Positions 2,002 through 53,360 of a stretch of DNA of 64,000 nt are shown one piece after another. The stretch is from Eledone cirrhosa. Its lineage: Eukaryota. The DNA is taken from positions 316,262,001-316,326,000 of the forward strand of contig OZ024741.1 of the NCBI GenBank assembly GCA_964016885.1, given 5' to 3'. Both the position numbers and the translations under genes were made by a program. How positions within the stretch are numbered: position 1 is the stretch's first letter; the number at the start of each line of letters is the position of its first letter. Under the pieces are notes generated by a model. It did no database searches, was not told the origin of the DNA, and worked only from the letters and a program-made list of their open reading frames with translations.

Positions 2002-5000
2002 TGTGGTCCACCATGAGTTTCCCATATTTAGCTGCTATTTCTAGCATACTTATGGATCACCATGAGGTTCCTCTATTTAGCTGTTATTCCTAGCGCACCT
2101 ATGGACCACCGTGAGGTTGCCCCAATTACCAATCCATCGCCTATGGTCCACCTTGAGTTTCCCATATTTAGCTCCTATTTCTAGCATACTTATGGATCAC
2201 CATGAGTTCCCCAATGTAGCTGTTACACCTAGCGCACCTATGGACTACCATGAGGTTCCTCCTATTTAGATGCTATTTCTAGCACATCTATGGACCACAA
2301 TGAGGTTCATCGTATATAGCTGCAATTTCTAGCACACCTATGGACGACCATGAGGTTTATCCATATCTAGCTGCTATTTGTAGCACACATGTGGACCACC
2401 ATGAAGTTGATCTTATTTAGTTGCGACTTCTAGCACACCTATGGACACATTGATGTTCCCACTATTTAGCTGATATTTCTAGCATACCTATGAACAACCA
2501 TGTGGTTCCCCCAATTTAGCTGCTATTTCTAGCACACCTATGGACCACCATAAGGTTCCCTCTATTTAGCTGCTTTTTCTAGCACACCTATGAAAAGTCA
2601 TGAAGTTCCCCCAATTTAGATGCTATTTCTAGCACACGTAAGGACAAGCAAGAGTTTCCCCCATATTTGGCTGCTATTTCTAGTATACCGATTGACCAGA
2701 ATGGGGTTCTCCCTATTTAGTTGCTATTTCTAGCTCATCTATGGACCATCATGAGGTTGCTCCTACTTAGATGCTATTTCTAGCACACCGATGGACAAGC
2801 ATGGTGTGTCCCCTATTTAGCTGCTGCTGCTAGCATATCTGTGGACCACCATGGGGTTCCCCTATTTAGCTGCTATTTCTTGCAATGCTATGGACCACCA
2901 TAAGGTTCCCTTTTTAGCTGCCATTTCTAGTAAACCTATGGAGCATCATGACGTTCTTAGGTGCTATTTCTAACGCAGCTATGGACCACTATGGTGTTTC
3001 TCCTTATTTAGCTGCTATTTCTGGCATACCTATGGACCACCATGTGGTTCCCCTATTTAGCTGCCATTTCTAGAATACCTATGACCACCGTGAGGTTCCT
3101 CTTCTTTAGATCCTATTTGTAGCACACCTATGGACCACCATGAGTTTCCCTGTATTTAACTATTATTTCTAACATACCTAAGGAACACCATGTGAGTCCC
3201 CTATTTAGCTGCTATTTCTAGGACACCTATGGAACACCATGAGGTTCCCCCTATTTACCTGCTAACTCTAGCACACCTGTGGACCACCATGAGGTTCCCT
3301 AATTTAGCTACTATTTCTAGCACACCTAAAGACCACCATAGTTTTCCCCCTATTTAGCAGCTATTTCTATCAAACTTGTGGACCAATTTGAGGTTCGTCC
3401 TATTTTGCTGCTATTTCTAGCACACCTATGGACTACCATTAGGTTCCCCGTATTTAGCTGCTCTTCCTAGCACAACTATGGACCTCCATCAGGTTACCCT
3501 GATTTAGATGCTATTTCTAGCACACCTATGGTACACCATGATGTTCCTCCTCTTTAGCTGCTATTTCTAACACATTTGTGGACCAGCATGAGGTTCCTCC
3601 TATTTAGCTACTTTTTCTAGCACTCCTCTGGACCACCATGAGCTTCCCCCAATATTACTGCTATTTCTAGCACACCTATGGACCAGTAAAGGTACCCCTA
3701 TTTAACTGATATTTCTAAGCACACCGATTGATCAGCATAAGGTTCCTTCTATTTAGCTGCTATTCCTAGCACACCTATGGACCACCATGATGTACCCCTT
3801 ATTTAGCTGCTATCTTTAGCATAGCTATGGACCAACATAAGGTTCCCCCTATTTAGCTGCTATTTCTAGCACCCCTGTGGACCATAATGTGATTCCTTCA
3901 TTTTGCTGCTATTACTAGCACACCTATGACACCATGATGTTCCCCCTATTTAGCTGTTATATCCAGCAATGCTATAGACCACCATATGTTTCCCTTTTTA
4001 GCTGCCATTTCTAGCAAAACTAAGTACCGACATGACGTTCCCGTATTTAGCTGCTATTTCTAGCATACCTATGAACCAGTATGAGGTTCCCATATTTAGC
4101 TGCGAATCCTAGCACACTTATGGACCACCATGAGGTTCCTCGTATTTAGATGCTATATCTAGCAGGCCTATGGATTACCATGAGGTCCCTCCTATTTAGA
4201 TGCTATTTCTAGCACACCTATGGACGACCATGAGGTTCACCATATCTAGCTGCTACTTCTAGCACACATCTGCACCTTTTATTTAGTTGCAATTACTAGC
4301 ACACCTATGGACACATTGATGTTCCCACTATTTAGCTGATATTTCTAGCATACCTATGGACAACCATGTGGTTCCCCCAATTTAACTGCTATTTCTAGCA
4401 CACCAATGGACAATCATAAAGTTTCCCTTATTTAGATGCTATCTGTAGCACACCTATGGACTACCATGAGATTTCCTTTATTTAGCTGCTATATCTAGCA
4501 CACCTTCGGACCCCCATAAAGTTCCCTCTATTTAGCTGCTTTTTCTAGTACACCTATGAAAAGCTATGAAGTTCCCCCAATTAAGATGCTATTTCTAGCA
4601 CACGTAAGGACAACCGAGAGTTTACCCCCTATTTGGCTGCTATTTCTAGCATACCTATTGACCAGCATGAGGTTCTCCCTATTTAGCTGCTATTTCTAGC
4701 TCACCTATGGACCACCATGAGGTTGCTCCTACTTAGATGCTATTTCTAGCACACCGATGGACAAGCATGGTGTGTCTCATATTTAGCTGCTGTTTCTAGC
4801 ATATCTGTGGCCCCTATTTGGTTGCTATTTCAAGCACACCTATGACCACCATGATGTTCCCTTATTTAGCTGCTATTTCTTGCAATGTTAGCAATGCCCT
4901 TAAGGTTCCCTTTTTAGCTGCCAGTTCTAGTAAACCTATGGACCACCATGACATTCCCATACTTAGGTGCTATTTCTAACGCAGCTATGGACCACCATGG

Positions 5001-6282
5001 TGTTTCTCCTTATTTAGTTGCTATTTCTACCATGCCTATGGACCACCATGTGATTCCTCTATTTAGCTGCCATTTCTAGGATACCTATGACCACCATGAG
5101 TTTCCCTGCATTTAGCTACCATTTCTAGCATAACTATGGAACACCATGTGGGTCCCCTATTTAGCTGTTATTTCTAGCACACCTGTGGACCACTATAATG
5201 TACCACTATTTAGCTGCTATTTCTAGCACACCTATAGACCACCTATTGACCACCATGAGGTCGTCGTCGTCGTCGTCCCCCCCCCCCCCCCATTTAGGTG
5301 TTATTTCTAACACAGTTATGGACCACCATCTAGCACACCTATGAACCACCCTGAGGTACCTCCTATTTTGTTGCTATTTCTAGCACGCCTATGGAGCACC
5401 ATGAGGTTCCTCTTATTTAGATGCTGTTTCTAGCCCACCTATGCGCCGCAATGAGTTTCCCTGCATTTAACTGCTCTTCCTATGTACCACCATGAGGTGC
5501 CCCCAATTTAGCTGCTATATCTTGCATATTATGGTCTACTATGTTTAGCTGATATTTCTAGCACACTTATCGGCCACCATAAGGATCCCCAATGTAGCTG
5601 CTATTTCTAGCACAAGTGTACCCATGAGGGTACACTTGTGCTAGAAATCGGAATTTGGCTTCTAGTTCTAACACACCTATTAACCACCATGAGGTTCCCT
5701 GTATTTAGCAGCTATTCCTAGCAGACCTATGGACCACCATGACGTTTACCCTTTTAAGCTGCTATTTCTAGCACAGCTATGGACCACTAGGAGGTGTCCG
5801 TTATTTAGCTGCTATTTCTAGCACACCTGTGGACCACAATGAGTTTCCTCCAATTTAGCTGCCGTTTCTAGCACACCTATGGACCACCATGAGTTCCCTC
5901 CTGTTTAGCTGCTATTTCTAGCACACCTATCGACCACCATGTGGTTCCCTCTATTTAGCTTCTATTTGTAACATACCTATGGACCACCACGAGATTCTCC
6001 CTATTTGGTTGCTATTTCTAGCATACCTATGGACAACCATGTGGTTCTCCCAATTTAGCTGCTATTTCTAGCTTACCGATGGTCCAACATAAGGTTTCCC
6101 TATTTAGTTGCTATTTCTAGCACACTTGTGGACCAGCATGAGGTTCCCTCAATTTAGCTGTTATATGTAACACAGAAATTAACCACCATGTAGTTCTCCG
6201 CATTTAGCTGCTATTTCTAACACACCTATGGACCACAATGAGGTTCCGCATATTTAAATGCTTTTTGTAGCACACCGATGGA
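2002..6282 (+). repeat. About 50-bp satellite array, roughly 85 diverged units (ggaccaccatgaggttccccctatttagctgctatttctagcacacctat)
   Basis: Direct tandem periodicity seen by eye. Confidence 0.97.
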
Positions 6283-6414
6283 GTAATTATTAACACCAAA
6301 GTTGAAAGATGAAAGATAAAACAAAAATACCCAAATGTTGAAAAAAAAACGTCAAACAATAATTATATTTCTGGCGATATTTTAATATTGAATAATTCAA
6401 TAATTATGCGCAGG

Positions 6415-8080
6415 TATAGATGTGCTAGAAATAGTAGCTAAATAAGGGAAACTTCAATGTGGTCCATAGGTGTACGAGGAATAGCAGCTAAATAAGGGGA
6501 ACATGTTCGTCTATAGGTGTGTGAAAAATAGAAACTAAATAGGTGTGGGAGAAATAGCATCTAAATAGGAGGAACTTCATGGTGGTCCATATGTGTGTTA
6601 GATATAGTAGCTAAATTAGGAGTAGTTCATAGTGGTCCATATGTATGCTAGAAATAGTAGCTAAATGGGGGAACCTCATGGTGGTTCATAGATGTGCTAA
6701 GAATAGCAGCTAAATAGGAGAAAGCTCTTGGTGGTCCATAGATGTGCTAGAAATAGCAGCTAATTAGCGGGAAACTCATGCTGGTCCATAGGTGTGCTAG
6801 AAGTAGCAGCTAAATTAGGGGAACCTTGTGGTGGTCCATATGTGTGTTAGAAATAGCAGCTAAATAGGGGAACCTCATGGTGGTCGATAGGTGTGTAGAA
6901 ATAGCAGCTAAATAAGGGGAACCTCATGCTGACCCACACGTGTGCTAGAAATAGCAGCTAAATATGGGAACGGACATGGTGGTCCATAGGTGTGCTAAAA
7001 ATACGAGCTAAATAGGAGAAGCGCATGGTGCTAAATAGGTGTGCTAGAAATTGCAAATAAATTGGGGAAACCTCATGGTGGTCAACAGGTATGATAGAAA
7101 GCAGCTAAATAGGGGAACCTCAGGGTGGTCCGTTGGTATGCTAGAAATAGCAGCAATAAAGAGAGAACATCGCAGTGGCCATAGCTGTGCCAGAAATATC
7201 AGCTAAATAGGAGTAACCTCATAGTGGTTCATCGTTGTGCTAGATATAGCAGCTAAATTGGGGGAACCTTACGGTGGTCCATGAGTGTGCTAAAAATAGC
7301 AGCTAAACAGGGACACCACATGGTGGTCCATTTGTATGCTAGAAATAACAGCTATATAAGGGAAACACCATGGTGTGCTAAAAATCGTAGCTAAATTAGG
7401 AGTACCTCACAGTGGTCGATGTGTGTGTTAGAAATAACAGCTAAATAGGGGAAAGCACATGGTAGTTCATAGGTTTACTAGAAATAGCACCTAACTAGCG
7501 CGAAAAACATGGTGGTCCATAGTTGTGCGAGAAATAGAAGCTAAATTAGGGGAACCTCATGGTGGTCCACATGTGTACTGGAAATAGCAGCTAAATAGGG
7601 GAATCGCATTGTGGTCCATAGGTGTGTTAGAAATAGCAGCTAAATAAAGGGGACCTCATGCTAGTCCACACGTGTGATAGAGATAGCAGCTACATAGGGG
7701 GAAACGACATAGTGGTCCATGGGTGTTCTAGAAATACCAGCTAAATAGGGCAACCTCATAGGTGCAGCCATATAAGTGTGCTACATATAGCAGCTAAATT
7801 GGGGGGGGGGGATTCATGGTGGTGTATAGATGTTCTAGGAATAGCAGCTATCCAGGGAGGGGGGACTTGCTGGTCCATAGGTGTACTAGAAATATCACCT
7901 AAATGGAGGAAAGCACTTGGTGGTCCCTAGGGGCTGCTAGAAATAGCAGCTAAATTGGGGAAACCTCATGGTGGTACATAGGTGTGCTAGAAATAGCAGC
8001 TGAAGGAAGAAACCTTATGGTGGTCCATATGTATGCTAGAAATAGCAGCTAATTGTGGGCAACCTCATGGTGGTCCATAT
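6415..8080 (-). repeat. Same 50-bp satellite in inverted orientation, roughly 33 units
   Basis: Units read ggtgtgctagaaatagcagctaaataggggaacctcatggtggtccata, the reverse complement of the first array. Confidence 0.97.
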
Positions 8081-25878: not shown

Positions 25879-26326
25879 CATATATATGAAACCAGTTTGT
25901 CCATCTTAGCCTTCATATGAATTTTTCCCATTTTATTTATTTTTTTTGCTAGTTTTTTTTTTGTCAACTTTTTTTAAAAAACCTATCTATTACCTTTTGT
26001 CTCATGCCATAACAATAATAATAATAATAACAATAACAACAATAATAATCATTATTATTATCATCCTCATCATCGTCGTCATTATTTTTTCATTGTTTTA
26101 TAATTAATATCATTATTATTCATATCATCATCATTATTATTACTATCATCATCATTATTATTACTATCATCATTATCATCGTCATCATTAAAAAGGAGGA
26201 TAAGGGGAAATTCTTACTTCATAAATTCTGTTGTATGTATTGTTTAAATATATACATATATACATATATATTTGAATATAAATGTGTGTCTATATATATA
26301 TATATATATATGTATGTTTATATATT

Positions 26327-26368
<42 letters not shown>

Positions 26369-26506
26369 TACATACAAATTTATACACACACATATATATA
26401 TATACATACATATATATATTATAATATATATATATAGACATACATACAAATATATATACACACACACATATATATATACACACACACACATATATATATA
26501 CACATA

Positions 26507-26561
<55 letters not shown>

Positions 26562-26584
26562 TATAAACATACATACAAATATAT

Positions 26585-26617
<33 letters not shown>

Positions 26618-27075
26618 CACATATATATATATATTATATATATATATATATATACAGCCACATACACCATACACGCATACACACATATTTAGGCCCACAT
26701 ACACCTGCAATAGAAATATTTTTGTTATAAATTATTTATCTGCAGTTTCATTTTTTTTAACCTTTATAATTTCTCTATTTTCTTATTTGGGGGAAGGTTT
26801 TCATGTTACTTTTAAATCTCAAAATTCAATATTAAACTTTTTTTTTCAATATTTATTTACATATATATATTATATATATACATATATATATATACACACA
26901 CATATATGCATATATATACATATATGTGTGTATATACATATATGTATGTATATATACATAATATACATACACACACATACACATACACATATATATATAT
27001 ATATATCATCATCATCATCATCATCATCATTTAACGTCTATCTTCCACGTTAAACGATGATGATGATGATGATGA

Positions 27076-27131
<56 letters not shown>

Positions 27132-28139
27132 GTGATTTTAATAAAAAAAAAAATTTTTGTATATTTTCTCATCTGAAATCTTTTTTTTGTATATTTATTT
27201 ATATAATTATTTAATTATTTATATTTATATTTAATTTTTTTTCTTTTTCCATTCATCTTTTTAAATAAAAACTGAGAATTTTTTGTTGTTGTTTTAGATA
27301 GGGATTAGTTTTTGTTTGTTGTTCACTGGGTGTTTGTAAGTGTGCTTTGTTTGGTGGTGGTGTTGTGGTGGAAAAGTATGGATATTTAGGGGGGGGGGGG
27401 CGAAAGATATGGAGGAGATATAGGTGGTGCATGTGTATAAGATGGACAAGAGAAAGTATGTGTGTGTGTGTGTGTGTATGTGTGTCTGTGTGTGTGTACG
27501 TGTGGAAGAAGGTTGGACAGGTGAATCAGGTAAGGGTGAGGGGAAGGCATAGCAAAGCAGTGTTGGTGGTGGAGGAACTGAATGGGGGAGTCACAAGTTA
27601 TTAATGGAGGAGAGGTAGAAAGCATGAGGATGTGGTGTATGTGATGGGTGAGGGTTCCCTGTAAATATAGTTGGGCTTCTAAGGTTTGAAGCATTATTGG
27701 GTGTAAAGAGAGGGTTGGTGAGACATAGGTATTGGCACTGTTGTTTAAACCCCACCCACCACAGACCCTCTTTTTATTCTGACACAATATTCAAGGATAC
27801 ATCATGAAATGTGTCCTTACTTTTGTTGTTTCAGGGTCCTTTTTTAAAGACAGTAGTGTGATTTGATGAAGATGTGACTGCCATTTCAAGCAAGAAAGTG
27901 AAGCAACAGTATATTGTATAGTTTTCTGCCACTGTTTGTATTGTGTTCCTGAGAGAGGCCAGAGTTAGGGCCCATCCCTGTGGGTCAAATTGATAGTTGA
28001 ATGGGAGCAAAGAAAGACACAGGGTTCTGTGGTACATAGGAAGGGGGGTACAGTAGTAGTAGTCGTAGTACATAGGGGTGAGAGTTAAGGTACCAGATGC
28101 TATTGGTGGTTTGCGCCCCCCTCCCCCTCCCCCACATCA

Positions 28140-28345
28140 GCCATGATCCAGAGATCAATGATCAAAGCTGTTCCTGATGTGACCGTCCCATCTTGGGTTA
28201 TTTTTTATTTATCCATTTTTATTTATTTATATTTAATTTCAAGACAGTACACTGAGTGTCTTTTAAAGGACAAAAGGGTTATGATTTGAGGCAAATTTGG
28301 CTGCTAATTTTAGCAGATCGAGCGACCATATATGGAGCCCCTTGT
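28140..28345 (+). mobile_element. Dispersed repeat family C copy
   Basis: gatcaaagctgttcctgatgtgaccgtcccatct ... gatttgaggcaaatttggctgctaattttagcagatcgagcgacc. Confidence 0.7.
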
Positions 28346-28645
28346 TGGCACACAAATGTACTACTATTAGTGTATGATGGTGGTGGTGGTGGTGGTGGTG
28401 GTGGGTTGGATGGTAGGTGGGAGTGATGGGTTGGATGGTGCAGTAAGGGCAGTGGTTTTGCTAGGTTAAGGACTCTGCAGGATGGGGAGAGGGATTGTGG
28501 TGACCCAGAATGGAAGGGTGAGTAAGTAGGCATTTGATGGTGGGTTGTTGTTGTTGTTGTTGTTGGTTATATCTATAGAAATCAGGTGTGTGTATGTGAG
28601 AGAGAGAGAGAGAGAGATGTTAATAATAGAGGTCAGGTACTTAAG

Positions 28646-29509
28646 TTAGAGTACCTGTCTTATGTATGTGAATGTGCGTGTCTGTGTGTAGGTGGCAGTG
28701 GGTGTGAGTGAGTGTGGATGTGGGATGAGGTTAGGGTAAAGTAGTAGTAGTAATATCAAGGTAGGTGGACAACCTACTCTGTAAATTTGTTTGGCAGCAA
28801 AAAACACTTTTAAAATAGAGTTCCAATTATGCAACAACAATAATAATAATAATAATATTAATAATAATAGTAATAGTAATAATAATAATAATAATAATAT
28901 CAATGACTTCCATTTCCTCCTCCCCTTCCTCCTCTTCTTCATCATGGTATCTTCCTTTGTCAGAGTGTTGTTCATATAGATCATGTTTATAAAGTTTCTT
29001 ATAGTGTTGATGTTGTTGATGGTGGTGGTGGTGGTGGTGTTGGTGTTGCTGTTGTTCTTGTTGTCATCATGCTTGCTCTTCTTCTTCCTCTGCTTAGCGT
29101 CTTTCATTTCTAACATCTCCATTAACATCGCTTTTGTCGTCGACATCATCTTCCCGCAGCTCTCTCTATCATCCACACCCACATGCACAATACTTGCATC
29201 AATATTATTATTATTATTATTACTGTCGTAGTTGTTGCTGTTGTTATAACAGGTGATGCTGGTGATGGTGGTGAAGATAGTGATGATGATGGTGGTGGTG
29301 ATTATGATGTTGTTGCTGTTATAGTAGTAGTAATAGAAGTAGTACCTGTAGTCATGTTTATTGTAGTCGTGGTTGGTGCTATGTGTGTGGCTGTTACTGT
29401 TGTTATTGTTATTGTTATAATTGTAGTTGTGGTAGTTATAGAGATCTTTGTTGTTTTTGTTGTTACTGTTGTTGGTGTCATTGTTGTTGTTGTCAGTATT
29501 CTTGTTCTG

Positions 29510-29540
<31 letters not shown>

Positions 29541-29896
29541 TTGTTGTTGTTGCAGTGTTTGTTATCGTGAGGGATGCTGTTGCTGTTATCATGAGGGTTG
29601 TTGTTGTTGTCAGGTGAAGAAAAGTCTATCAGATGACAGCAGCGATGATACTCACCAGTGATGCTGTTGCCCTTAACGATGACAACCACGCCTGCCTCAG
29701 CCACTGATCTTCCCCCCTCTGCCCATTTCCTTCTCCCCTCCTCTCCCCCCTCATTTTTCTCACCATCACTGACATTACTGTCATCGCCATTGTTATTGTT
29801 ATTGTTCCGGTCATCGCCACTGTCGCCAACACAGCTGCTGCTGTTGTTGCCATTGACAACGCTGCCACGATGATATATGTTGCTCCTGGCAGAGAG
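28646..29896 (-). other. Stop-free in-frame continuation (416 codons) after the MXD TGA: either 3'UTR or a readthrough extension
   Basis: Hand translation of 29896-29705 gives 64 stop-free codons that run in frame into the listed 352-aa ORF 29704-28646. The sequence is low complexity and rich in trinucleotide repeats. Confidence 0.45.
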
Positions 29897-30039
29897 TCAT
29901 AGCGATGGGGTGGGGCGGTTGGAGTTGTTGTCCAGCGACAGTTGCCCCGTGCCGGAGACAAACCCATCACTATCGATACTGCTTCGGTCTTCACTGTCAT
30001 CGCTCTGTGTACTATTATATCCTAAGATGTCCACATCAT
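29897..30039 (-). CDS. MXD1: MXD-family gene, terminal coding exon up to the first stop (TGA)
   Basis: The acceptor is ctttatttcttcctttttcag|AT GAT GTG. The phase-1 join gives DDVDILGYNSTQSDDSEDRSSIDSDGFVSGTGQLSLDNNSNRPTPSL*, which resembles the acidic EIDVDV...SD...SDEGYSS tail of MXD proteins. Confidence 0.88.
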
Positions 30040-30201
30040 CTGAAAAAGGAAGAAATAAAGATAAATATATATAATAACAACAATGTAGTATTTTAGCAAT
30101 TAATATCCTGTACCACATTAAACCACATTAGCAAGACATTGAAAAATAGAAAGAATATCACAATGACTGCATTACATTAAAAACTAAAGATTCTACTCTA
30201 A

Positions 30202-30415
30202 CCCATTAATGTTCAACCCGGCCAAAACCGGCCAGAATTCTCTACCTCTTTCTGTTCTGGCTATAACTGGTCGCTCAAACTGATGTTAAGGTATTGTTCT
30301 CAAAATAAATACTTTCAAAATCTCATAGATTCGATATTATGTGAGATAATTATGTGAGATAAAGCATTTACCATGAAAATATAATAGTATATATAGAGTT
30401 ATGAATGTTAAAGGG
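30202..30415. mobile_element. piggyBac-like MITE in the short MXD intron
   Basis: CTAA|CCCATTAATGTTCA ... TGAATGTTAAAGGG|TTAA: 14-bp imperfect TIRs with a TTAA-like TSD. Confidence 0.65.
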
Positions 30416-30689
30416 TTAATATTGTAAATTTTCAAAATGTTCTGTTAAGTAATAGAGATACTATGAATATTTGAATTAACAAACCTATTTTAAAATATTC
30501 TCAAATAAATCATTACAGGATGTTAAGAGTTAAGGCCATTTTCGCTGTTAAAGCAGAGGTTAGCCTTGTGAGGCTAATAAGTTTCTCCATTTTGCCCTAT
30601 CCTCTACATTCAACCCCTGGCTTTCATTTCATCCTCTATCATATATATAGCAACAACAATAACAATAATGGCAGTATCAAATATTATGG

Positions 30690-30850
30690 ATTTCCAATGG
30701 TTGTGTGGCTAAAGAAGTCTGGTTCACAACCATGTGATTTGGGGTTTTATTCCACCATGTGGCACATTGGAAAGTGTCTTCTACTATAGCCTCAAGGTTG
30801 ACCAATGCCTTGTGAGTGAAGTTTGAGGACCAGATATTAGCTGAAGATCA
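30690..30850 (+). mobile_element. SINE family B 5' part
   Basis: atggttgtgtggctaaagaag...aaagtgtcttctactatagcctcaaggttgaccaatgccttgtgagtg. A related copy lies at 37755-37895. Confidence 0.7.
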
Positions 30851-31210
30851 AACCTGATCATGCTAATCCTTGTTTTCAGCTGTACAACTTGTGTGACTAT
30901 ATCGTAGATGAGTTCATCTTGGGGGAGATGGAGTGCATGACGAAACCAATAAAGGCCCTCTGGAGCAGTTGTTGGAAAGAATCAATCTGTGGTTGGAATT
31001 AGTAAGGGCAACAAGTTGAGGAAACTATGCCAAATATGGAATGTGTAAGCAAGATGAAGTCACTCCAACCCATCTGGTTTTTTACTGTGACCTGTCCAAC
31101 TCATGCCAGTGTGGAAAGCAGATGTAAAATGATGATGATGATTAAACACACACACACACACACACACACAGATTAAGGTGAGGAAGAGAATGTACTGTAA
31201 AGTATTTTAC

Positions 31211-31385
31211 CTGATTCTGAAGCTGAATTAGTGGAATTAGTTGAAGTGCTACATTCACTGATGCTCCGTTCTGGTCGATACCATTGTATTCCTGATAATT
31301 CATCTATCCTCCTCTGTAAATGACCATTATCTTTCGTTAATTTGTCGAGCAGCTGACTATGTCGCTTTTGTTTCTCTTCAAGTGC
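31211..31385 (-). CDS. MXD1: MXD-family gene, leucine-zipper exon (175 nt)
   Basis: Boundaries are ttttttttaacaacag|GCA CTT GAA...TCA G|gtaaaa. It translates ALEEKQKRHSQLLDKLTKDNGHLQRRIDELSGIQWYRPERSISECSTSTNSTNSASES, with a heptad L-H-L-L-L followed by a Ser-rich tail as in MXD proteins. The phase 0 start fits the upstream exon. Confidence 0.92.
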
Positions 31386-31417
31386 CTGTTGTTAAAAAAA
31401 AAATGATAATATTAATA

Positions 31418-31545
31418 ATGATTTCTACTATAAGCACAAGGCCAGAAATGTTGGGGGGGGGGGGGGGTCAATTAAATTGACCCCAGTGCATTACTGGTAT
31501 TAAGGATGAAAGGCAAAGCTAACCTCGGCAGAATTTGAACTGAGA
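31418..31545 (-). mobile_element. SINE family A, truncated, just upstream of the zipper-exon acceptor
   Basis: gcacaaggccagaaat...gaccccagtgcattactggta...aggatgaaaggcaaagctaacctcggc. Confidence 0.8.
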
Positions 31546-31629
31546 CAACTCTTTTAACAAGTAAACTGTGAATGATGAAAAGAAAGCACTAGACTCAAAT
31601 TATAAATGTTATATTATTATATTTTTATC

Positions 31630-33497
31630 CAAGTGACATACAGAATGGGGTTGTTCCGAAGGACTGGCGTAGCAGCATTATCGTTAACTGTTATAAGGGT
31701 AAAGGAGATGCCCTAGATAGGAGTAACTACAGAGGCATTAAATTAATCGACCAGGTCATGAAGGTCACGGAAAAAGTAATAGCGCAACTAATCAGAGAGC
31801 GAATTGATCTAGATGAAATGCAGTTCGGGTTTGTGTCAGGAAAAAGTACCACAGACGCTCTTTTCATTGTACGACAACTACAGGAGAAGTACCTAGCTAA
31901 AAGTAAACCCCTATACTTAGCTTTCGTCGACTTGGAGAAGGCCTTCGACAGAGTCCCCCGTTCCATTATCTGGTGGGCTCTTAGAAAACTAGGTGTTGAT
32001 GAATGGCTTGTGAGAGCTATACAAGCCATGTATAAAGAAACAGTCAGCAAGGTTAGAATTAACAACGAATATAGTGAAAAGTTTAGTGTAAAAGTTGGTG
32101 TTCATCAGGGCTCTGTTCTTAGCCCCCTACTATTTATTATTGCCCTCCAGCTATAACAGTGGAGTTCAAGACCGGCTATCCATGGGAACTCCTATACGCA
32201 GATGATCTAACGCTCATAGCTGAATCAAAACAGGGAAGCACGGCCTAGAATCAAAAGGCCTTAAAATTAACCTGGCTAAGACTAAAGTTCTAGTTTGTAA
32301 GAAAGAAAATAAGGCGGCTGTCCCCTCCGGGAAGTGGCCATGCGCAGAGTGTAGGAAAGGCGTAGGTAGAAATTCCATTTTGTGTCCCAAATGCAAAGTT
32401 TGGGTGCATAAAAGATGTAGTGGGATCACAGGTAAGCTAACTAAGAACATAGATTTTACATGTGGCCGGTGTTCTGGGGCAATAAGTAGCAGCAAGTGCC
32501 CAAAAAATACTAGCTCTTTCAACTGCGCAGAGGGTTCTATAGAAATAGTGGACAGCTGCCGTTACCTGGGTGACAAAATCAGCAGTGGGGGAGGGTGCTC
32601 TGAAAGTACAGTAGCTAGAGTCAGAACTGGGCGGAAAAAGTTCAGAGAGCTTATACCACTATTAGCCGCTAAAGGGTTCTCCCTAAAAATGAAAGGCAGG
32701 TTGTACGATGCCTGCATACGAACAGCAATGTTGCATGGCAGTGAGACCTGGGCATTGTGTGCAGAGGATATACGCAGACTAGAGAGAAACGAAGCTTGCA
32801 TGCTCCGCTGGATGTGTAGTAGTAATATACGTGAACGACAAAGCATAAACGAACTAAGGAAAAAATTAGAAATAAGAGGGATCAGATGTTGTTTACTAGA
32901 GAGAAGGCTACGTTGGTATGGTCACGTGATGCGCATGAAGGACGATAGCTGTATAACAAAGTGCAGGGCAATAAAGATAGCCGGTAGCCACGGAATAGGC
33001 AGACCCAGAAAAACCTGGGACGAGCTGATAAACTCCGACCTCACACACTTACACCTCACCAAGACAATGTCACTGGACCGAGACCTTTGGCGGTACTCAG
33101 TAATAGAGAAGACCCGCCTTACCTAAATACAAAGTAAAACCTACTACAGTCAGTAGGCATCTCTAACAAAATAACCCCCATCCTACCACCCCCACCCCAT
33201 CCACACCGCCCCCTTCTATGTAAAGTTATGTTGGTGCCACACCATCCAGGCCGAAACAAATGAGATCGTGTAGGTGTCACGACAAAAAAACACACAGTCC
33301 ACGCTGTAATGTGGCCGTGTAGGCAACACGGTAAAAACCTCCCAGACCCACACTGTAAATGTGGTTGGTGTTAGGAAGGGCATCCAACTGTAGAAAACCT
33401 GCCAGACAGTCCTATGCGAGCAAGACAATCACTCTTGCCTCAAGTGGGAAAACCCCCGTCCAAACCCATGCAAGCGTGGAACACGGACGTTAAACGT

Positions 33498-40340: not shown

Positions 40341-40859
40341 ATCTTATATAAAATCATTTTGTTATATTCTAATTTAAATATGGGCTCTTTAAAATTGATA
40401 ATTTTGTTTCATAGGATCAGAGCAGGATTTTGCCAGGTTGATATCATAAGAGTTAGAAGAATGACAATTATTTAGGGACGCCTGCTGCATGAAAATTTAA
40501 TAGTAAAATGGATATAACCACCATACTACCACCAACAATAACACCACCACCACCCTAACACCAGTAACAACACAACCACTATCAACACCACACTATACAC
40601 CAGCAACAAACACCGACCACCACAAACACTAATACTAAAACCACCACCACCACCACAATAGCAACACCAACACCAGCAATAAAACAACCACTACAACAAA
40701 CATCAAAACTAACACCTCCACTACCACCACCACCACCACAACCACCACCAAACACCAACACTAACACCACCACCACAACAGCAACACTAACACCAGCAAC
40801 AACACAACCGCTACCACAAACATCAACACTAACACATCCACCACCACCACCGCACTAAC

Positions 40860-42880
40860 AACAGTAACAACACAACCATCACCCCAAACACCAACACCAC
40901 CACACCAGTAACAACACAACCATCACACCAAACACCAACACCACCAACAACACAACCATCACCCCAAACACCAACACCACCACACCAGTAACAACACAAC
41001 CATCACCCCAAACACCAACACCACCACACCAGCAACAACACAACCATCACCCCAAACACCAACACCACCACACCAGCAACAACACAGCCATCACCCCAAA
41101 CACCAACACCACCACACCAGTAACAACACAACCATCACCCCAAACACCAACACCACCACACCAGTAACAACACAACCATCACCCCAAACACCAACACCAC
41201 CACACCAGTAACAACACAACCATCACCCCAAACACCAACACCACCACACCAGTAACAACACAACCATCACCCCAAACACCAACACCACCACACCAGCAAC
41301 AACACAACCATCACCCCAAACACCAACACCACCACACCAGTAACAACACAACCATCACCCCAAACACCAACACCACCACACCAGCAACAACACAACCATC
41401 ACCCCAAACACCAACACCACCACACCAGCAACAACACAACCATCACCCCAAACACCAACACCACCACACCAGTAACAACACAACCATCACCCCAAACACC
41501 AACACCACCACACCAGCAACAACACAACCATCACCCCAAACACCAACACCACCACACCAGCAACAACACAACCATCACCCCAAACACCAACACCACCACA
41601 CCAGTAACAACACAACCATCACCCCAAACACCAACACCACCACACCAGTAACAACACAACCATCACCCCAAACACCAACACCACCACACCAGTAACAACA
41701 CAACCATCACCCCAAACACCAACACCACCACACCAGTAACAACACAACCATCACCCCAAACACCAACACCACCACACCAGTAACAACACAACCATCACCC
41801 CAAACACCAACACCACCACACCAGCCACAACACAACCATCACCCCAAACACCAACATCACCACACCAGTAACAACACAACCATCACCCCAAACACCAACA
41901 TCACCACACCAGCCACAACACAACCATCACCCCAAACACCAACATCACCACACCAGTAACAACACAACCATCACCCCAAACACCAACATCACCACACCAG
42001 CCACAACACAACCATCACCCCAAACACCAACACCACCACACCAGTAACAACACAACCATCACCCCAAACACCAACACCACCACACCAGTAACAACACAAC
42101 CATCACCCCAAACACCAACACCACCACACCAGCAACAACACAACCATCACCCCAAACACCAACACCACCACACCAGTAACAACACAACCATCACCCCAAA
42201 CACCAACACCACCACACCAGTAACAACACAACCATCACCCCAAACACCAACACCACCACACCAGCAACAACACAACCATCACCCCAAACACCAACACCAC
42301 CACACCAGTAACAACACAACCATCACCCCAAACACCAACACCACCACACCAGTAACAACACAACCATCACCCCAAACACCAACACCACCACACCAGCAAC
42401 AACACAACCATCACCCCAAACACCAACATCACCACACGAGTAACAACACAACCATCACCCCAAACACCAACACCACCACACCAGCCACAACACAACCATC
42501 ACCCCAAACACCAACATCACCACACGAGTAACAACACAACCATCACCCCAAACACCAACACCACCACACCAGTAACAACACAACCATCACCCCAAACACC
42601 AACACCACCACACCAGCAACAACACAACCATCACCCCAAACACCAACACCACCACACCAGCAACAACACAACCATCACCCCAAACACCAACACCACCACA
42701 CCAGTAACAACACAACCATCACCCCAAACACCAACACCACCACACCAGTAACAACACAACCATCACCCCAAACACCAACACCACCACACCAGCCACAACA
42801 CAACCACCACCCCAAACACCAACATCACCACATCAGCCACAACACAACCATCACCCCAAACACCAACACTACCACACCAT
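40860..42880. repeat. 44-bp minisatellite, about 45 highly similar copies
   Basis: caccaacaccaccacaccag(t/c)aacaacacaaccatcaccccaaa. Confidence 0.97.
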
Positions 42881-43221
42881 CAGTTACTGCCTGACAGTGT
42901 TGAAATAACACATGTAACATATTTGCAATGTTTAGTTTCTCCTTGTAACATTTTCAGTAAAATATAGCATTACTGTCCAACACCAACACCAACAGCACCA
43001 CTGTCACCACCACCTCACAGGGTGAGGGTGAAGTGGTGAGAGGTAGACAAAGTGGCCATGACATTATTTACAAAACATCAAGTCAGCTTTGAGATGTTAC
43101 ACAAATATCATACACTACAATGATCACTTCCACACCACACATATACATACACACACATATACACACATGCATCCAGATACACACACTCATACTCAAACAG
43201 GTACAAGTGCACATGTACACA

Positions 43222-43310
<89 letters not shown>

Positions 43311-43699
43311 ATATGTACACAAGTTGACAAGTGAATGAAGATAAATATCATCACCGCTACTACTACTATTGTTGCTGCCACTTCAAGAGTGGGATGTTTG
43401 CAGTGATAATCTTCCCCTAAACCTGGCCCACCCCTTTCTATCAACATTGTTACAACACTGACTCACCACCACCACCACCACCACCACCACCAAGATCAGT
43501 ACCCCACAATAACACCACCTCTAAGACCATTACTCCCACAACTACTGAGATCAGCACCACAACAACACCACCACTAAAACAATCACTGCATCAACAGCAT
43601 TTCTAACAACACTAACACCCTCACTACATCACTACATCACTGCCATTACAACACCAGCACCATTACAACACTAACACTACCCCACCGAAACAACCGGCA

Positions 43700-46600
43700 C
43701 TACTAACAACTTCACCAACACTCCCACCACAATACTACCACCACTACCAACAACTTCACCAACACTCCCACCACAATACTACCACCACTACCACTACCAA
43801 CAACTTCACCAACAATCCCACCACAATACTACCACCACTAAAACAACCACCACTACCAATAACTTCAACACTCCCACCACAATACTACCACCACTACCAA
43901 CAACTTCACCAACAATCCCACCACAATACTACCACCACTACCACTACCAACAACTTCACCAACACTCCCACCACAATACTACCACCACTAAAACAACCAC
44001 CACTACCAATAACTTCAACACTCCCACCACAATACAACCACCACTACCAACAACTTCACCAACAATCCCACCACAATACTACCACCACTACCACTACCAA
44101 CAACTTCACCAACACTCCCACCACAATACTACCACCACTACCACTACCAACAACTTCACCAACACTCCCACCACAATACTACCACCACAATACTACCACC
44201 ACTACCAACAACTTCACCAACACTCCCACCACAATACTACCACCACTACCAACAACTTCACCAACACTCCCACCACAATACTACCACCACTACCACTACC
44301 AACAACTTCACCAACAATCCCACCACAATACTACCACCACTACCACTACCAACAACTTCACCAACACTCCCACCACAATACTACCACCACTACCACTACC
44401 AACAACTTCACCAACACTCCCACCACAATACTACCACCACAATACTACCACCACTACCAACAACTTCACCAACACTCCCACCACAATACAACCACCACTA
44501 CTAACAACTTCACCAACACTCCCACCACAATACTACCACCACTACCAACAACTTCACCAACACTCCCACCACAATACAACCACCACTACTAACAACTTCA
44601 CCAACACTCCCACCACAATACTACCACCACTACCAACAACTTCACCAACACTCCCACCACAATACTACCACCACTACCAACAACTTCACCAACACTCCCA
44701 CCACAATACTACCACCACTACCAACAACTTCACCAACACTCCCACCACAATACTACCACCACTACCAACAACTTCACCAACACTCCCACCACAATACAAC
44801 CACCACTACTAACAACTTCACCAACACTCCCACCACAATACTACCACCACTACCACTACCAACAACTTCACCAACACTCCCACCACAATACTACCACCAC
44901 TACCAACAACTTCACCAACACTCCCACCACAATACTACAACCACTACCAACAACTTCACCAACACTCCCACCACAATACTACCACCACTACCAACAACTT
45001 CACCAACACTCCCACCACAATACTACCACCACTACTAACAACTTCACCAACACTCCCACCACAATACTACCACCACTAAAACAACCACCACTACCAACAA
45101 CTTCACCAACACGCCCACCACAATACTACCACCACTAAAACAACCACCACTACCAATAACTTCAACACTCCCACCACAATACTACCACCACTACTAACAA
45201 CTTCACCAACACTCCCACCACAATACTACCACCACTAAAACAACCACCACTACCAACAACTTCACCAACACTCCCACCACAATACTACCACCACTAAAAC
45301 AACCACCACTACCAATAACTTCACCAACACTCCCACCACAATACTACCACCACTAAAACAACCACCACTACCAATAACTTCAACACTCCCACCACAATAC
45401 TACCACCACTAAAACAACCACCACTACCAACAACTTCACCAACACTCCCACCACAATACTACCACCACTAAAACAACCACCACTACCAATAACTTCACCA
45501 ACACTCCCACCACAATACTACCACCACTAAAACAACCACCACTACCAATAACTTCGCCAACACTCCCACCACAATACTACCACCACTAAAACAACCACCA
45601 CTACCAATAACTTCAACACTCCCACCACAATACTACCACCACTAAAACAACCACCACTACCAACAACTTCACCAACACTCCCACCACAATACTACCACCA
45701 CTAAAACAACCACCACTACCAACAACTTCACCAACACTCCCACCACAATACTACCACCACTACCAACAACTTCACCAACACTCCCACCACAATACTACCA
45801 CCACTACCAACAACTTCACCAACACTCCCACCACAATACTACCACCACTAAAACAACCACCACTACTAACAACTTCACCAACACTCCCACCACAATACTA
45901 CCACCACTAAAACAACCACCACTACCAATAACTTCAACACTCCCACCACAATACTACCACCACTAAAACAACCACCACTACTAACAACTTCACCAACACT
46001 CCCACCACAATACTACCATCACTAAAACAACCACCACTACCAATAACTTCAACACTCCCACCACAATACTACCACCACTAAAACAACCACCACTACCAAC
46101 AACTTCACCAACACTCCCACCACAATACTACCACCACTAAAACAACCACCACTACCAATAACTTCAACACTCCCACCACAATACTACCACCACTAAAACA
46201 ACCACCACTACCAATAACTTCAACACTCCCACCACAATACTACCACCACTAAAACAACCACCACTACCAACAACTTCACCAACACTCCCACCACAATACT
46301 ACCACCACTAAAACAACCACCACTACCAATAACTTCAAAACTCCCACCACAATACTACCACCACTAAAACAACCACCACTACCAATAACTTCAACACTCC
46401 CACCACAATACTACCACCACTAAAACAACCACCACTACCAACAACTTCACCAACACTCCCACCACAATACTACCACCACTAAAACAACCACCACTACCAA
46501 TAACTTCAACACTCCCACCACAATACTACCACCACTAAAACAACCACCACTACCAACAACTTCACCAACACTCCCACCACAATACTACCACCACTAAAAC

Positions 46601-47590
46601 AACCACCACTACCAATAACTTCAACACTCCCACCACAATACTACCACCACTAAAACAACCACCACTACCAACAACTTCACCAACACTCCCACCACAATAC
46701 TACCACCACTAAAACACCACCACTACCAATAACTTCAACACTCCCACCACAATACTACCACCACTAAAACAACCACCACTACCAACAACTTCACCAACAC
46801 TCCCACCACAATACTACCACCACTACCAATAACTTCAACACTCCCACCACAATACTACCACCACTAAAACAACCACCACTACCAACAACTTCACCAACAC
46901 TCCCACCACAATACTACCACCACTAAAACAACCACCACTACCAATAACTTCAACACTCCCACCACAATACTACCACCACTAAAACAACCACCACTACCAA
47001 TAACTTCAACACTCCCACCACAATATTACCACCACTAAAACAACCACCACTACCAACAACTTCACCAACACTCCCACCACAATACTACCACCACTAAAAC
47101 AACCACCACTACCAATAACTTCAACACTCCCACCACAATACTACCACCACTAAAACAACCACCACTACCAACAACTTCACCAACACTCCCACCACAATAC
47201 TACCACCACTAAAACAACCACCACTACCAACAACTTCACCAACACTCCCACCACAATACTACCACCACTACCAACAACTTCACCAACACTCCCACCACAA
47301 TACTACCACCACTACCAACAACTTCACCAACACTCCCACCACAATACTACCACCACTACCAACAACTTCACCAACACTCCCACCACAATACTACCACCAC
47401 TAAAACAACCACCACTACCAATAACTTCAACACTCCCACCACAATACTACCACCACTAAAACAACCACCACTACCAATAACTTCAACACTCCCACCACAA
47501 TACTACCACCACTAAAACAACCACCACTACCAATAACTTCAACACTCCCACCACAATACTACCACCACTAAAACAACCACCACTACCAAG
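43700..47590. repeat. Variable-unit minisatellite (44/50/56/59 bp), about 3.9 kb, almost G-free on the + strand
   Basis: Core ttcaccaacactcccaccacaatactaccaccactaccaacaac, with optional accact or aaaacaaccaccact inserts and a 3-bp deletion variant. Confidence 0.97.
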
Positions 47591-53245: not shown

Positions 53246-53360
53246 CTTAATAAATGATTTAGCTTTAGTTAATAACCCTAATGTTGTATGCCGAGTACAG
53301 TCCTGACCGAGTGGCACAAGATCTTTCAAGTTTTCAAGACAATGACGTAAATGGGCTCGC
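53246..53360 (-). CDS. MXD1: Mad/Mxi (MXD-family) bHLH-Zip gene, helix-loop-helix exon (115 nt)
   Basis: Minus strand reads ttttgcag|G CGA GCC CAT...ATT AAG|gtaggt and translates (R)[38 protein letters not shown]. This closely matches the MXD1/MXI1 segment [38 protein letters not shown]. Phase is 2 in, 0 out. The symbol is family-level, because a paralogue-specific name cannot be assigned. Confidence 0.95.

Follow-up and report, generated by a model that had tools for sequence, protein, structure and literature searches.

Behind the stop codon of a Mad/Mxi-type gene of Eledone cirrhosa, the reading frame stays open for more than four hundred codons. This raises the question of whether these codons are translated, giving a long form of a MYC antagonist, or whether they are a by-product of the repetitive DNA of which the region is made. 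The first-pass annotation of this stretch of contig OZ024741.1, 64,000 nucleotides long and called here the window, had put forward, as a candidate, a stop that is read through or edited. Here we examine the identity and the normal end of the gene, the structure of the open frame, the probability that such a frame arises from repeats, its likeness to coding sequence, and the context of the stop.

The gene and its normal end

Judged by sequence homology, the gene carrying the open frame is the octopod Mxd/Mad gene, in agreement with the identity first proposed. The following exons lie in the window:

53246..53360, minus strand: helix-loop-helix exon (RAHLRHCLE...KAKSFIK), 100% identity to residues 59-97 of O. 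vulgaris P0004, AG/GT ends
31211..31385, minus strand: exon with the leucine zipper and the RSISECSTST segment, 90% identity to P0004 residues 98-155, AG/GT ends
29897..30039, minus strand: coding part of the last exon, ending in RPTPSL and TGA, 77-96% identity to seven cephalopod-like proteins, with the same end in all

Two further exons were located 49 and 76 kb past the window end in this genome of ~3.0 Gb; these two and the first two exons listed above match Octopus vulgaris Mxd at 90-100%, and the five exons in all map onto it in order. The helix-loop-helix exon shows 98% identity to proteins of O. bimaculoides, O. vulgaris and Sepia that bear the name MXD or max dimerization protein, and the bHLH-Zip region, with its HTTLGLL loop, is orthologous to annotated MXD. 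The orthologues have an exon for residues 1-18 (the N-terminal Sin3-interaction domain), of which no trace turned up in the window or within 100 kb upstream.

The last exon starts at 30039 on the minus strand, behind an acceptor AG at 30041-30040, and reads DVDILGYNS...RPTPSL, the C-terminal RPTPSL being nearest to RPTPLL and RPIPLL of Octopus. All 12 cephalopod-like proteins retrieved (141-222 aa, Argonauta included) have a homologous C-terminal end, and protein searches gave no cephalopod Mxd above 222 aa. Since these proteins, from octopus, argonaut and cuttlefish, stop at the homologous place, the comparison identifies the TGA at 29899-29897 as the ancestral end of Mxd and not as a fresh nonsense change; a recent premature stop was ruled out by this shared end point. 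Some variation exists immediately before the last exon: decapod Mxd has an optional segment of 15 residues (AETSISSSSPISGLE) between the last two exons, for which tblastn found no matching exon in the intron 30040-31210, and O. bimaculoides P0003 is without 18 residues at the junction of these exons.

The introns of the gene and its surroundings contain repeats of several kinds. A fragment of a LINE-type reverse transcriptase, in two frames of 187 and 300 codons, lies antisense in an Mxd intron (31593-33126, plus strand) and its family recurs at two other sampled loci (L070 and L102). G-free minisatellite arrays with units of 44 bp and 56-59 bp lie inside an intron at 40858-47589 and have plus-strand open frames of up to 398 codons, while in another Mxd intron (L217, G000:C2:316386001-316396000) a 54-bp tandem array extends across nearly all of 10 kb, with one frame open over long stretches. 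A 50-bp tandem array at 2140-8079 consists of two opposed blocks (2140-6282 and 6539-8079) that form a large imperfect inverted repeat.

Layout of the open frame

Downstream of the TGA, on the minus strand, a C is followed by 416 sense codons up to a TAA at 28648-28646, exactly as had been described, so that an open continuation stands behind a true protein end. Each of the other five frames has between 20 and 42 stops across the same 1,248 nt. The extension is indeed rich in Asn, Ser, Asp and Tyr (N 77, S 40, L 38, T 34, I 28, K 25, D 23, Y 22 and Q 5 out of 416), and the basic patch QRKKKSK is present at 29092-29072. The following features were distinguished:

29357..29896, minus strand: proximal 180 codons, rich in Asn, Ser, Gly and Asp, like low-complexity tails of transcription factors of this genome; codons scored between 0.02 and 0.75, with medians of 0.40 for coding and -0.45 for non-coding sequence; GC content of 52% over the first 100 nt
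28649..29356, minus strand: distal 236 codons, where tracts of Tyr, Thr, Ile and Leu occur; from codon 151 on, scores are -0.18 to -0.70 in six of seven windows and 0.03 in the other
29357..29362, minus strand: AATAAA within the open frame (~codon 179), candidate polyadenylation signal by motif
28829..28906, minus strand: (ATT)n microsatellite, in this frame a run of 26 Leu and Ile residues, preceded by a basic KKRRKGRRKWK patch; best 19-residue hydropathy 3.9
28646..28648, minus strand: second in-frame stop, TAA, by sequence
28204..28237, minus strand: cluster of ATTAAA and two AATAAA ~420 nt past the second stop, candidate 3' end signal by motif

Two readings of this frame carry most of the weight. 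We hold, with confidence slightly better than even, that the 416-codon frame is a by-product of repeats and that the TGA is the normal end, with basal leak only. Functional readthrough at UGA-C, which would yield an Mxd isoform of ~620 residues with a low-complexity tail twice the size of the normal protein, is a tenable reading that we regard as the less probable one. Were it correct, a near-cognate tRNA would read the UGA-C, helped by the 3' hairpin and probably in neurons; the disordered Asn/Ser-rich tail could alter partners, stability or condensate behavior, and selection would keep stops out of the frame during the expansion of triplet tracts, as in other transcription factors of this genome. 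The AATAAA inside the open frame counts against it.

Triplet repeats and the length of the frame

The region is built of AAC, AGC, ACC, ATC and AAT tracts that keep one common phase over ~300 codons and are poor in stops when read in that phase. Up to codon 286, the phase of the gene is kept by nine of the ten perfect triplet tracts (AGC, AAC, ACC, ATC, AAT); from codon 333 the tracts change phase, and the (ATT)n is then read as poly-Leu. The +1 frame contains only three stops in the first 249 codons and the +2 frame is rich in stops, which is expected of degenerate (AAC)n-like DNA. The caution attached to the original proposal, that trinucleotide tracts lengthen ORFs by chance, was well placed: much of the openness comes from triplet tracts in a single phase. 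The purine-N-pyrimidine phase of the last exon, for its part, runs on ~310 codons into the open frame, and this speaks for readthrough.

Phase locking arises without coding, as indicated by the fact that tracts in random DNA of this genome often share phase. Adjacent tracts were in the same phase in 117 of 153 cases at gaps of 6-20 nt and in 104 of 149 at 21-50 nt; the share drops at wider gaps (39/90, 26/97 and 53/133), and coherent stretches reach up to 830 nt. The locking over ~900 nt at the Mxd stop is at the top of this range.

According to the repeat by-product reading, the 3' UTR would stay open because it consists of degenerate triplet-repeat DNA, untranslated. The coincidence of the tract phase with the frame of the gene is a one-in-three event; slippage in units of three would preserve the phase without selection on the protein, and the final ~100 codons may be open by luck.

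How rare such a run is depends on the null that is chosen. Stop-free sequences were obtained in none of 20,000 base shuffles and in none of 5,000 Markov runs at each order from 1 to 6, with 4 in 5,000 at order 8. As shuffles based on composition only disregard repeat phase, nulls were drawn from the genome's own DNA, using 98 arbitrarily placed 10-kb stretches (979,800 bases) with 104,652 stop-to-stop runs. At least 416 codons were found in 87 of these runs, 76 of them of the repeat type and coming from 16 of the 98 loci, the remainder being mostly retrotransposon frames. Repeat-made frames of at least this length therefore occur at ~7 per 10,000 stops in random DNA of this genome. They are mostly minisatellites and (AT)n, far more repetitive than the extension, whose 12-mer diversity is 0.94. 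When only varied triplet DNA is considered, 62 runs have at least 100 codons, eight at least 200 and a single one at least 300 (332 codons, locus L083), with none at 416 or above. The proposed comparison of ORF length with repeat-aware nulls thus gives a divided answer: repeats genome-wide do reach 416 codons (76/104,652), but triplet DNA of matched complexity does not, its longest run being 332.

For a run of this length, extrapolating the tail of the 62 varied runs of triplet DNA gives 0.9-1.5e-6 per stop, a figure based on few loci. Among 15 matched windows of 1,248 nt, none of the 90 frames was free of stops, and a block-matched background, where each 26-codon block was compared with its 150 nearest, predicted ~20 stops, with P(0) ~4e-6 if blocks are treated as independent. 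Assuming 25,000 genes in the genome, ~0.02-0.1 such frames would be expected per genome. Chance is not an easy explanation of the 416-codon length, and the rarity of ~1e-6 per stop under matched nulls is a point in favor of readthrough, tempered by the fact that scanning many genomes picks out such cases and by an extrapolation on few loci. The triplet DNA at L083 resembles the extension in its phase-locked mixed tracts, its kind having 200-332 open codons and runs of Asn, Thr, Ile, His and Leu; in contrast, the Mxd extension exceeds it in length (416) and in variety (12-mer diversity 0.94 vs. 0.70) and starts exactly at the stop of a gene.

Coding likeness of the extension

For comparison we assembled 31 transcription-factor frames of this genome (11,794 codons, 141 homopolymer tracts). 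Tracts of Gln (35), Ala (19), Ser (18), Asn (16) and His (14) lead in these real tails, and only 2 of the 141 are hydrophobic or aromatic. The extension has ten tracts, four of which are of Leu or Tyr and none of Gln or Ala, the two commonest residues in real tails. Hydrophobic or aromatic tracts of at least five residues therefore make up 4/10 in the extension, as against 2/141 in transcription-factor frames and 611/1,314 in non-coding open runs. Both the presence of poly-Leu and poly-Tyr and the lack of Gln and Ala tracts argue against readthrough.

With a codon classifier (leave-one-locus-out AUC 0.89), codons 1-180 came out as coding-like and the majority of the windows further on as non-coding. 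The first 180 codons, whose scores resemble those of coding tails and which are Asn/Ser-rich or GC-rich, favor readthrough, but the stop-rich +2 frame is also largely coding-like, so that the score partly reflects the class of repeat. For the distal part, the suspicion that its poly-Tyr/Ile/Leu looks non-coding was well founded, with codon scores and hydrophobic tracts in agreement. Only part of the "prion-like" description could be retained: at most residues 96-195 fit it (38% Asn, 13% Tyr), and Gln is almost absent.

That bona fide transcription factors of this genome bear low-complexity tails of 500-900 residues is in line with the readthrough reading. Many Fox, bHLH and homeodomain genes with low-complexity frames of ~560-1,050 codons (Gln, Ser, His, Asn and Pro tracts) were observed at loci L002, L026, L033, L043, L045, L186 and others. 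Longer frames also exist, such as one of 2,234 codons with four homeodomains (L204/L210, G000:C8:54479542-54483852) and one of 2,563 codons that includes a GPCR (L170, G000:C7:5974806-5978354).

Stop context, hairpin and control stops

The context of the Mxd stop was compared with that of other stops of the genome. A set of 68 control stops was obtained through domain searches (24 of 30 GPCR, 25 of 30 homeodomain, and 19 of 51 Forkhead and bHLH loci), after dropping partial or evidently intronic matches, and was extended to 108 with 40 more (20 fetched, and 20 of 55 HMG and nuclear-receptor loci), some of which are intronic. Two elements were considered:

29896..29899, minus strand: UGA-C stop context, UGA CUC UCU and not UGA CUA G; TGA-C in 3/68 and 5/108 control stops
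29862..29892, minus strand: predicted hairpin beginning 4 nt past the stop, CTGCCA/TGGCAG core; z -2.9 (50 nt), -1.5 (100 nt) and -1.1 (150 nt)

The stem noted previously, CTGCCA (+5 to +10) with TGGCAG (+30 to +35), is present and pairs in the predicted fold. It is an ordinary one, in that a perfect stem of at least 6 bp appears at the same place in 15 of the 68 control stops. A fold as strong as that of Mxd was found in 2/68 controls at 50 nt, a window picked after seeing the stem, and in 17/68 at 100 nt. A stem starting 4 nt after the stop would be partly unwound by the terminating ribosome. The first 100 nt after the stop have 52% GC, compared with a control median of 27.5%, and one of the 68 controls is as high. 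That UGA-C occurs together with a GC-rich start and with a strong fold over 50 nt is a point in favor of readthrough.

On the other side, the context is UGA-CUC. The vertebrate readthrough motif is UGA-CUAG, of which Mxd shares UGA and CU, while the next bases are C-U and not A-G. In HEK293T cells, 0.7% readthrough was obtained with UGA-C by itself (PMC5868278). Under the repeat by-product reading, the UGA-C of Mxd would likewise leak at a basal ~1% or less.

In the set of 68 control stops, the second frame is 8 codons long at the median and 154 at most. For the 108 stops, runs in frames 0, 1 and 2 numbered 51, 61 and 66 at lengths of at least 10 codons, 24, 28 and 32 at 30, and 4, 5 and 7 at 100. 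This absence of an in-frame excess, in a test that is underpowered and includes some intronic stops, tells against readthrough. At least 200 codons were reached in 4 of the 324 frame runs; the three that were inspected, from two loci, are repeats.

Two of the loci deserve mention by themselves. The 154 in-frame codons behind a homeobox stop (L191, G000:C17:15489452-15492622) contain a LYRDDGL motif and are likely a retroelement fragment inserted directly behind the gene. A nuclear receptor ending in SFNWPYMAIQ (L377, G000:C11:12763644-12766862, minus strand), which we take to be COUP-TF/seven-up-like, has the same TGA-CTCT context as Mxd and a second frame of three codons; in flies, readthrough occurs in seven-up.

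Other routes past the stop

The frame could also be reached without readthrough of an unaltered UGA. A-to-I editing would convert UGA to UGI, read as Trp, in some transcripts. Coleoid neural tissue shows abundant editing (PMC8382921), and the UGA is paired in some predicted folds. However, the A of the UGA stands between a 5' G and a 3' C, neighbors that ADAR disfavors (PMC5663115), and neighbor preferences at squid editing sites are described as resembling those of other animals (PMC4384741). No long duplex was predicted near the stop (z -1.9, 150 nt), and the cephalopod stop-loss edit described in PMC8382921 changes UAG to UGG. The suggestion of an edit from UGA to UGG is thus poorly supported, with disfavored neighbors and no long duplex, and we rate it as very improbable.

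Alternative splicing might remove the stop if a 78-nt GT..AG stretch (29963-29886) spanning the TGA were excised, joining the last exon in frame to the extension. The stretch is a multiple of three, is without an internal AG and fits the frame, but its donor scores -0.4, with 27 of 27 real donors at 5.0 or above, and its acceptor -4.9, with 25 of 27 training acceptors at 5.1 or above (small own-genome training sets, with a few acceptors mis-picked). An equally good stop-skipping pair is present in 53 of the 68 control stops. Together with the lack of any cephalopod Mxd beyond the normal length in the protein searches, this makes splicing just as improbable as editing.

The distal part could alternatively be a separate downstream ORF of 167 residues that would start at a Met pair at 29149 and contain a basic patch and a membrane anchor. 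This would fit the cluster of Met codons at codons 250-259 and the position of the basic patch ahead of the later hydrophobic stretch. Nevertheless, that stretch is the (ATT)n microsatellite, none of seven Met-started versions was found by exact look-up among ~15 billion proteins, and the first 249 open codons would be left unexplained. We consider it by a shade the least improbable of the three, which even taken together are unlikely.

Two further candidates were discarded. Selenocysteine insertion at the UGA is unlikely, as the SECIS scan, an Rfam search of 26000-31500 with E up to 1, gave 39 matches of which none was to a SECIS family and none reached the gathering score. An origin as a transposon or duplicate was rejected as well: in own-genome searches three parts of the region each matched one full-length place, the other matches being short and of the simple-repeat type.

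Relatives and sequence collections

A search of metagenomes for the cephalopod Mxd locus gave 597 pattern matches, none of which was confirmed. A second scan gave at least 49 Mxd-like loci, none cephalopod-like by identity among the matches listed; 46 of these 49 listed could be parsed and 26 are transcript-like (partly redundant, 37-73% identity). Among the matches listed, these 26 loci of other animals have no UGA-C, and their second frames are of 1-70 codons. The feature is therefore not an ancient trait of Mxd, a further point against readthrough.

The first 96 residues of the extension, alone or behind the last exon (TGA as Trp; proteins of 252-2000 aa), had no protein match. A HMMER search against 1.84 billion representatives was also without a match, but it missed known Mxd C-termini too and is hence uninformative, and the ESM Atlas gave no usable match to the extension. 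As gene callers stop at TGA, blank protein searches do not argue against readthrough. The literature search found no report of readthrough in a cephalopod gene or in Mxd, most subscription journals being outside its reach.

Comparison with known systems and best explanation

The closest precedent for readthrough is the Dfr-L form of Drosophila Drifter/Vvl, which is likewise a transcription factor with a long low-complexity Asn/Ser/His-rich second ORF and a predicted 3' hairpin, in one lineage; the tail is a Gln/Asn/His-rich extension found in dipterans only (PMC8417969). It differs in its UAG stop and in that its 286-aa, Gln-rich extension is conserved across dipterans and has been shown as protein (PMC8417969). 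The Mxd frame, in contrast, has UGA-C, nearly no Gln, and poly-Leu and poly-Tyr, and is a candidate extension. Drosophila kelch and headcase are alike in that the stop is UGA, with a 3' stem-loop and, in kelch, a long second ORF behind it; in their case ~30% neuronal readthrough has been measured and the stem is conserved (10.1101/2020.06.22.165522), whereas the predicted Mxd stem is only 4 nt past the stop. Long fly extensions tend to disorder and low complexity (PMC4999894). Abundant readthrough was reported for insects and Daphnia and for no non-pancrustacean species among 52 tested (PMC5100048); the main text of that study names no octopus, mollusc or Lottia, and cephalopods thus appear to be outside its tested set.

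The fate of any leak product may resemble that described for translation of non-coding sequences, whose products with hydrophobic C-terminal tails are captured by BAG6, readthrough products being degraded (10.1101/2022.07.20.500724; PMC10364623). The likeness lies in an open 3' UTR frame with a long hydrophobic stretch (10.1101/2022.07.20.500724; PMC10364623). In the repeat by-product reading, a rare long Mxd product with such a stretch would fall to the quality control that removes readthrough products and would not act as a working isoform. This step is weakened by the last 30 residues, which are not hydrophobic (mean -0.42), the hydrophobic stretch ending 60 residues ahead of the C-terminus; in the accounts cited, moreover, the pathway was demonstrated in human cells and worms, not in molluscs.

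The observations that stand against a repeat by-product are the rarity under matched nulls together with UGA-C (5/108), 52% GC (1/68) and the strong 50-nt fold (2/68). By our estimate, which is not a computed value, length, UGA-C and the GC-rich start favor readthrough by perhaps two orders of magnitude, and, also by estimate and not computation, about as much is taken back by the hydrophobic tracts, by the build in a single phase and by the rarity of long readthrough outside insects.

If the frame is a by-product of repeats, a frame of several hundred codons behind a stop is weak evidence of coding in this genome, given how often repeats yield such runs. If readthrough were true, a core growth regulator would have a long functional extension, and a mollusc would possess a readthrough transcription factor of the fly style, outside the insects and crustaceans that are thought to be the sole home of abundant readthrough. 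It would also be a hint that cephalopod neurons use readthrough beside editing, and would be reason enough to survey cephalopods genome-wide, in three frames and for conservation.
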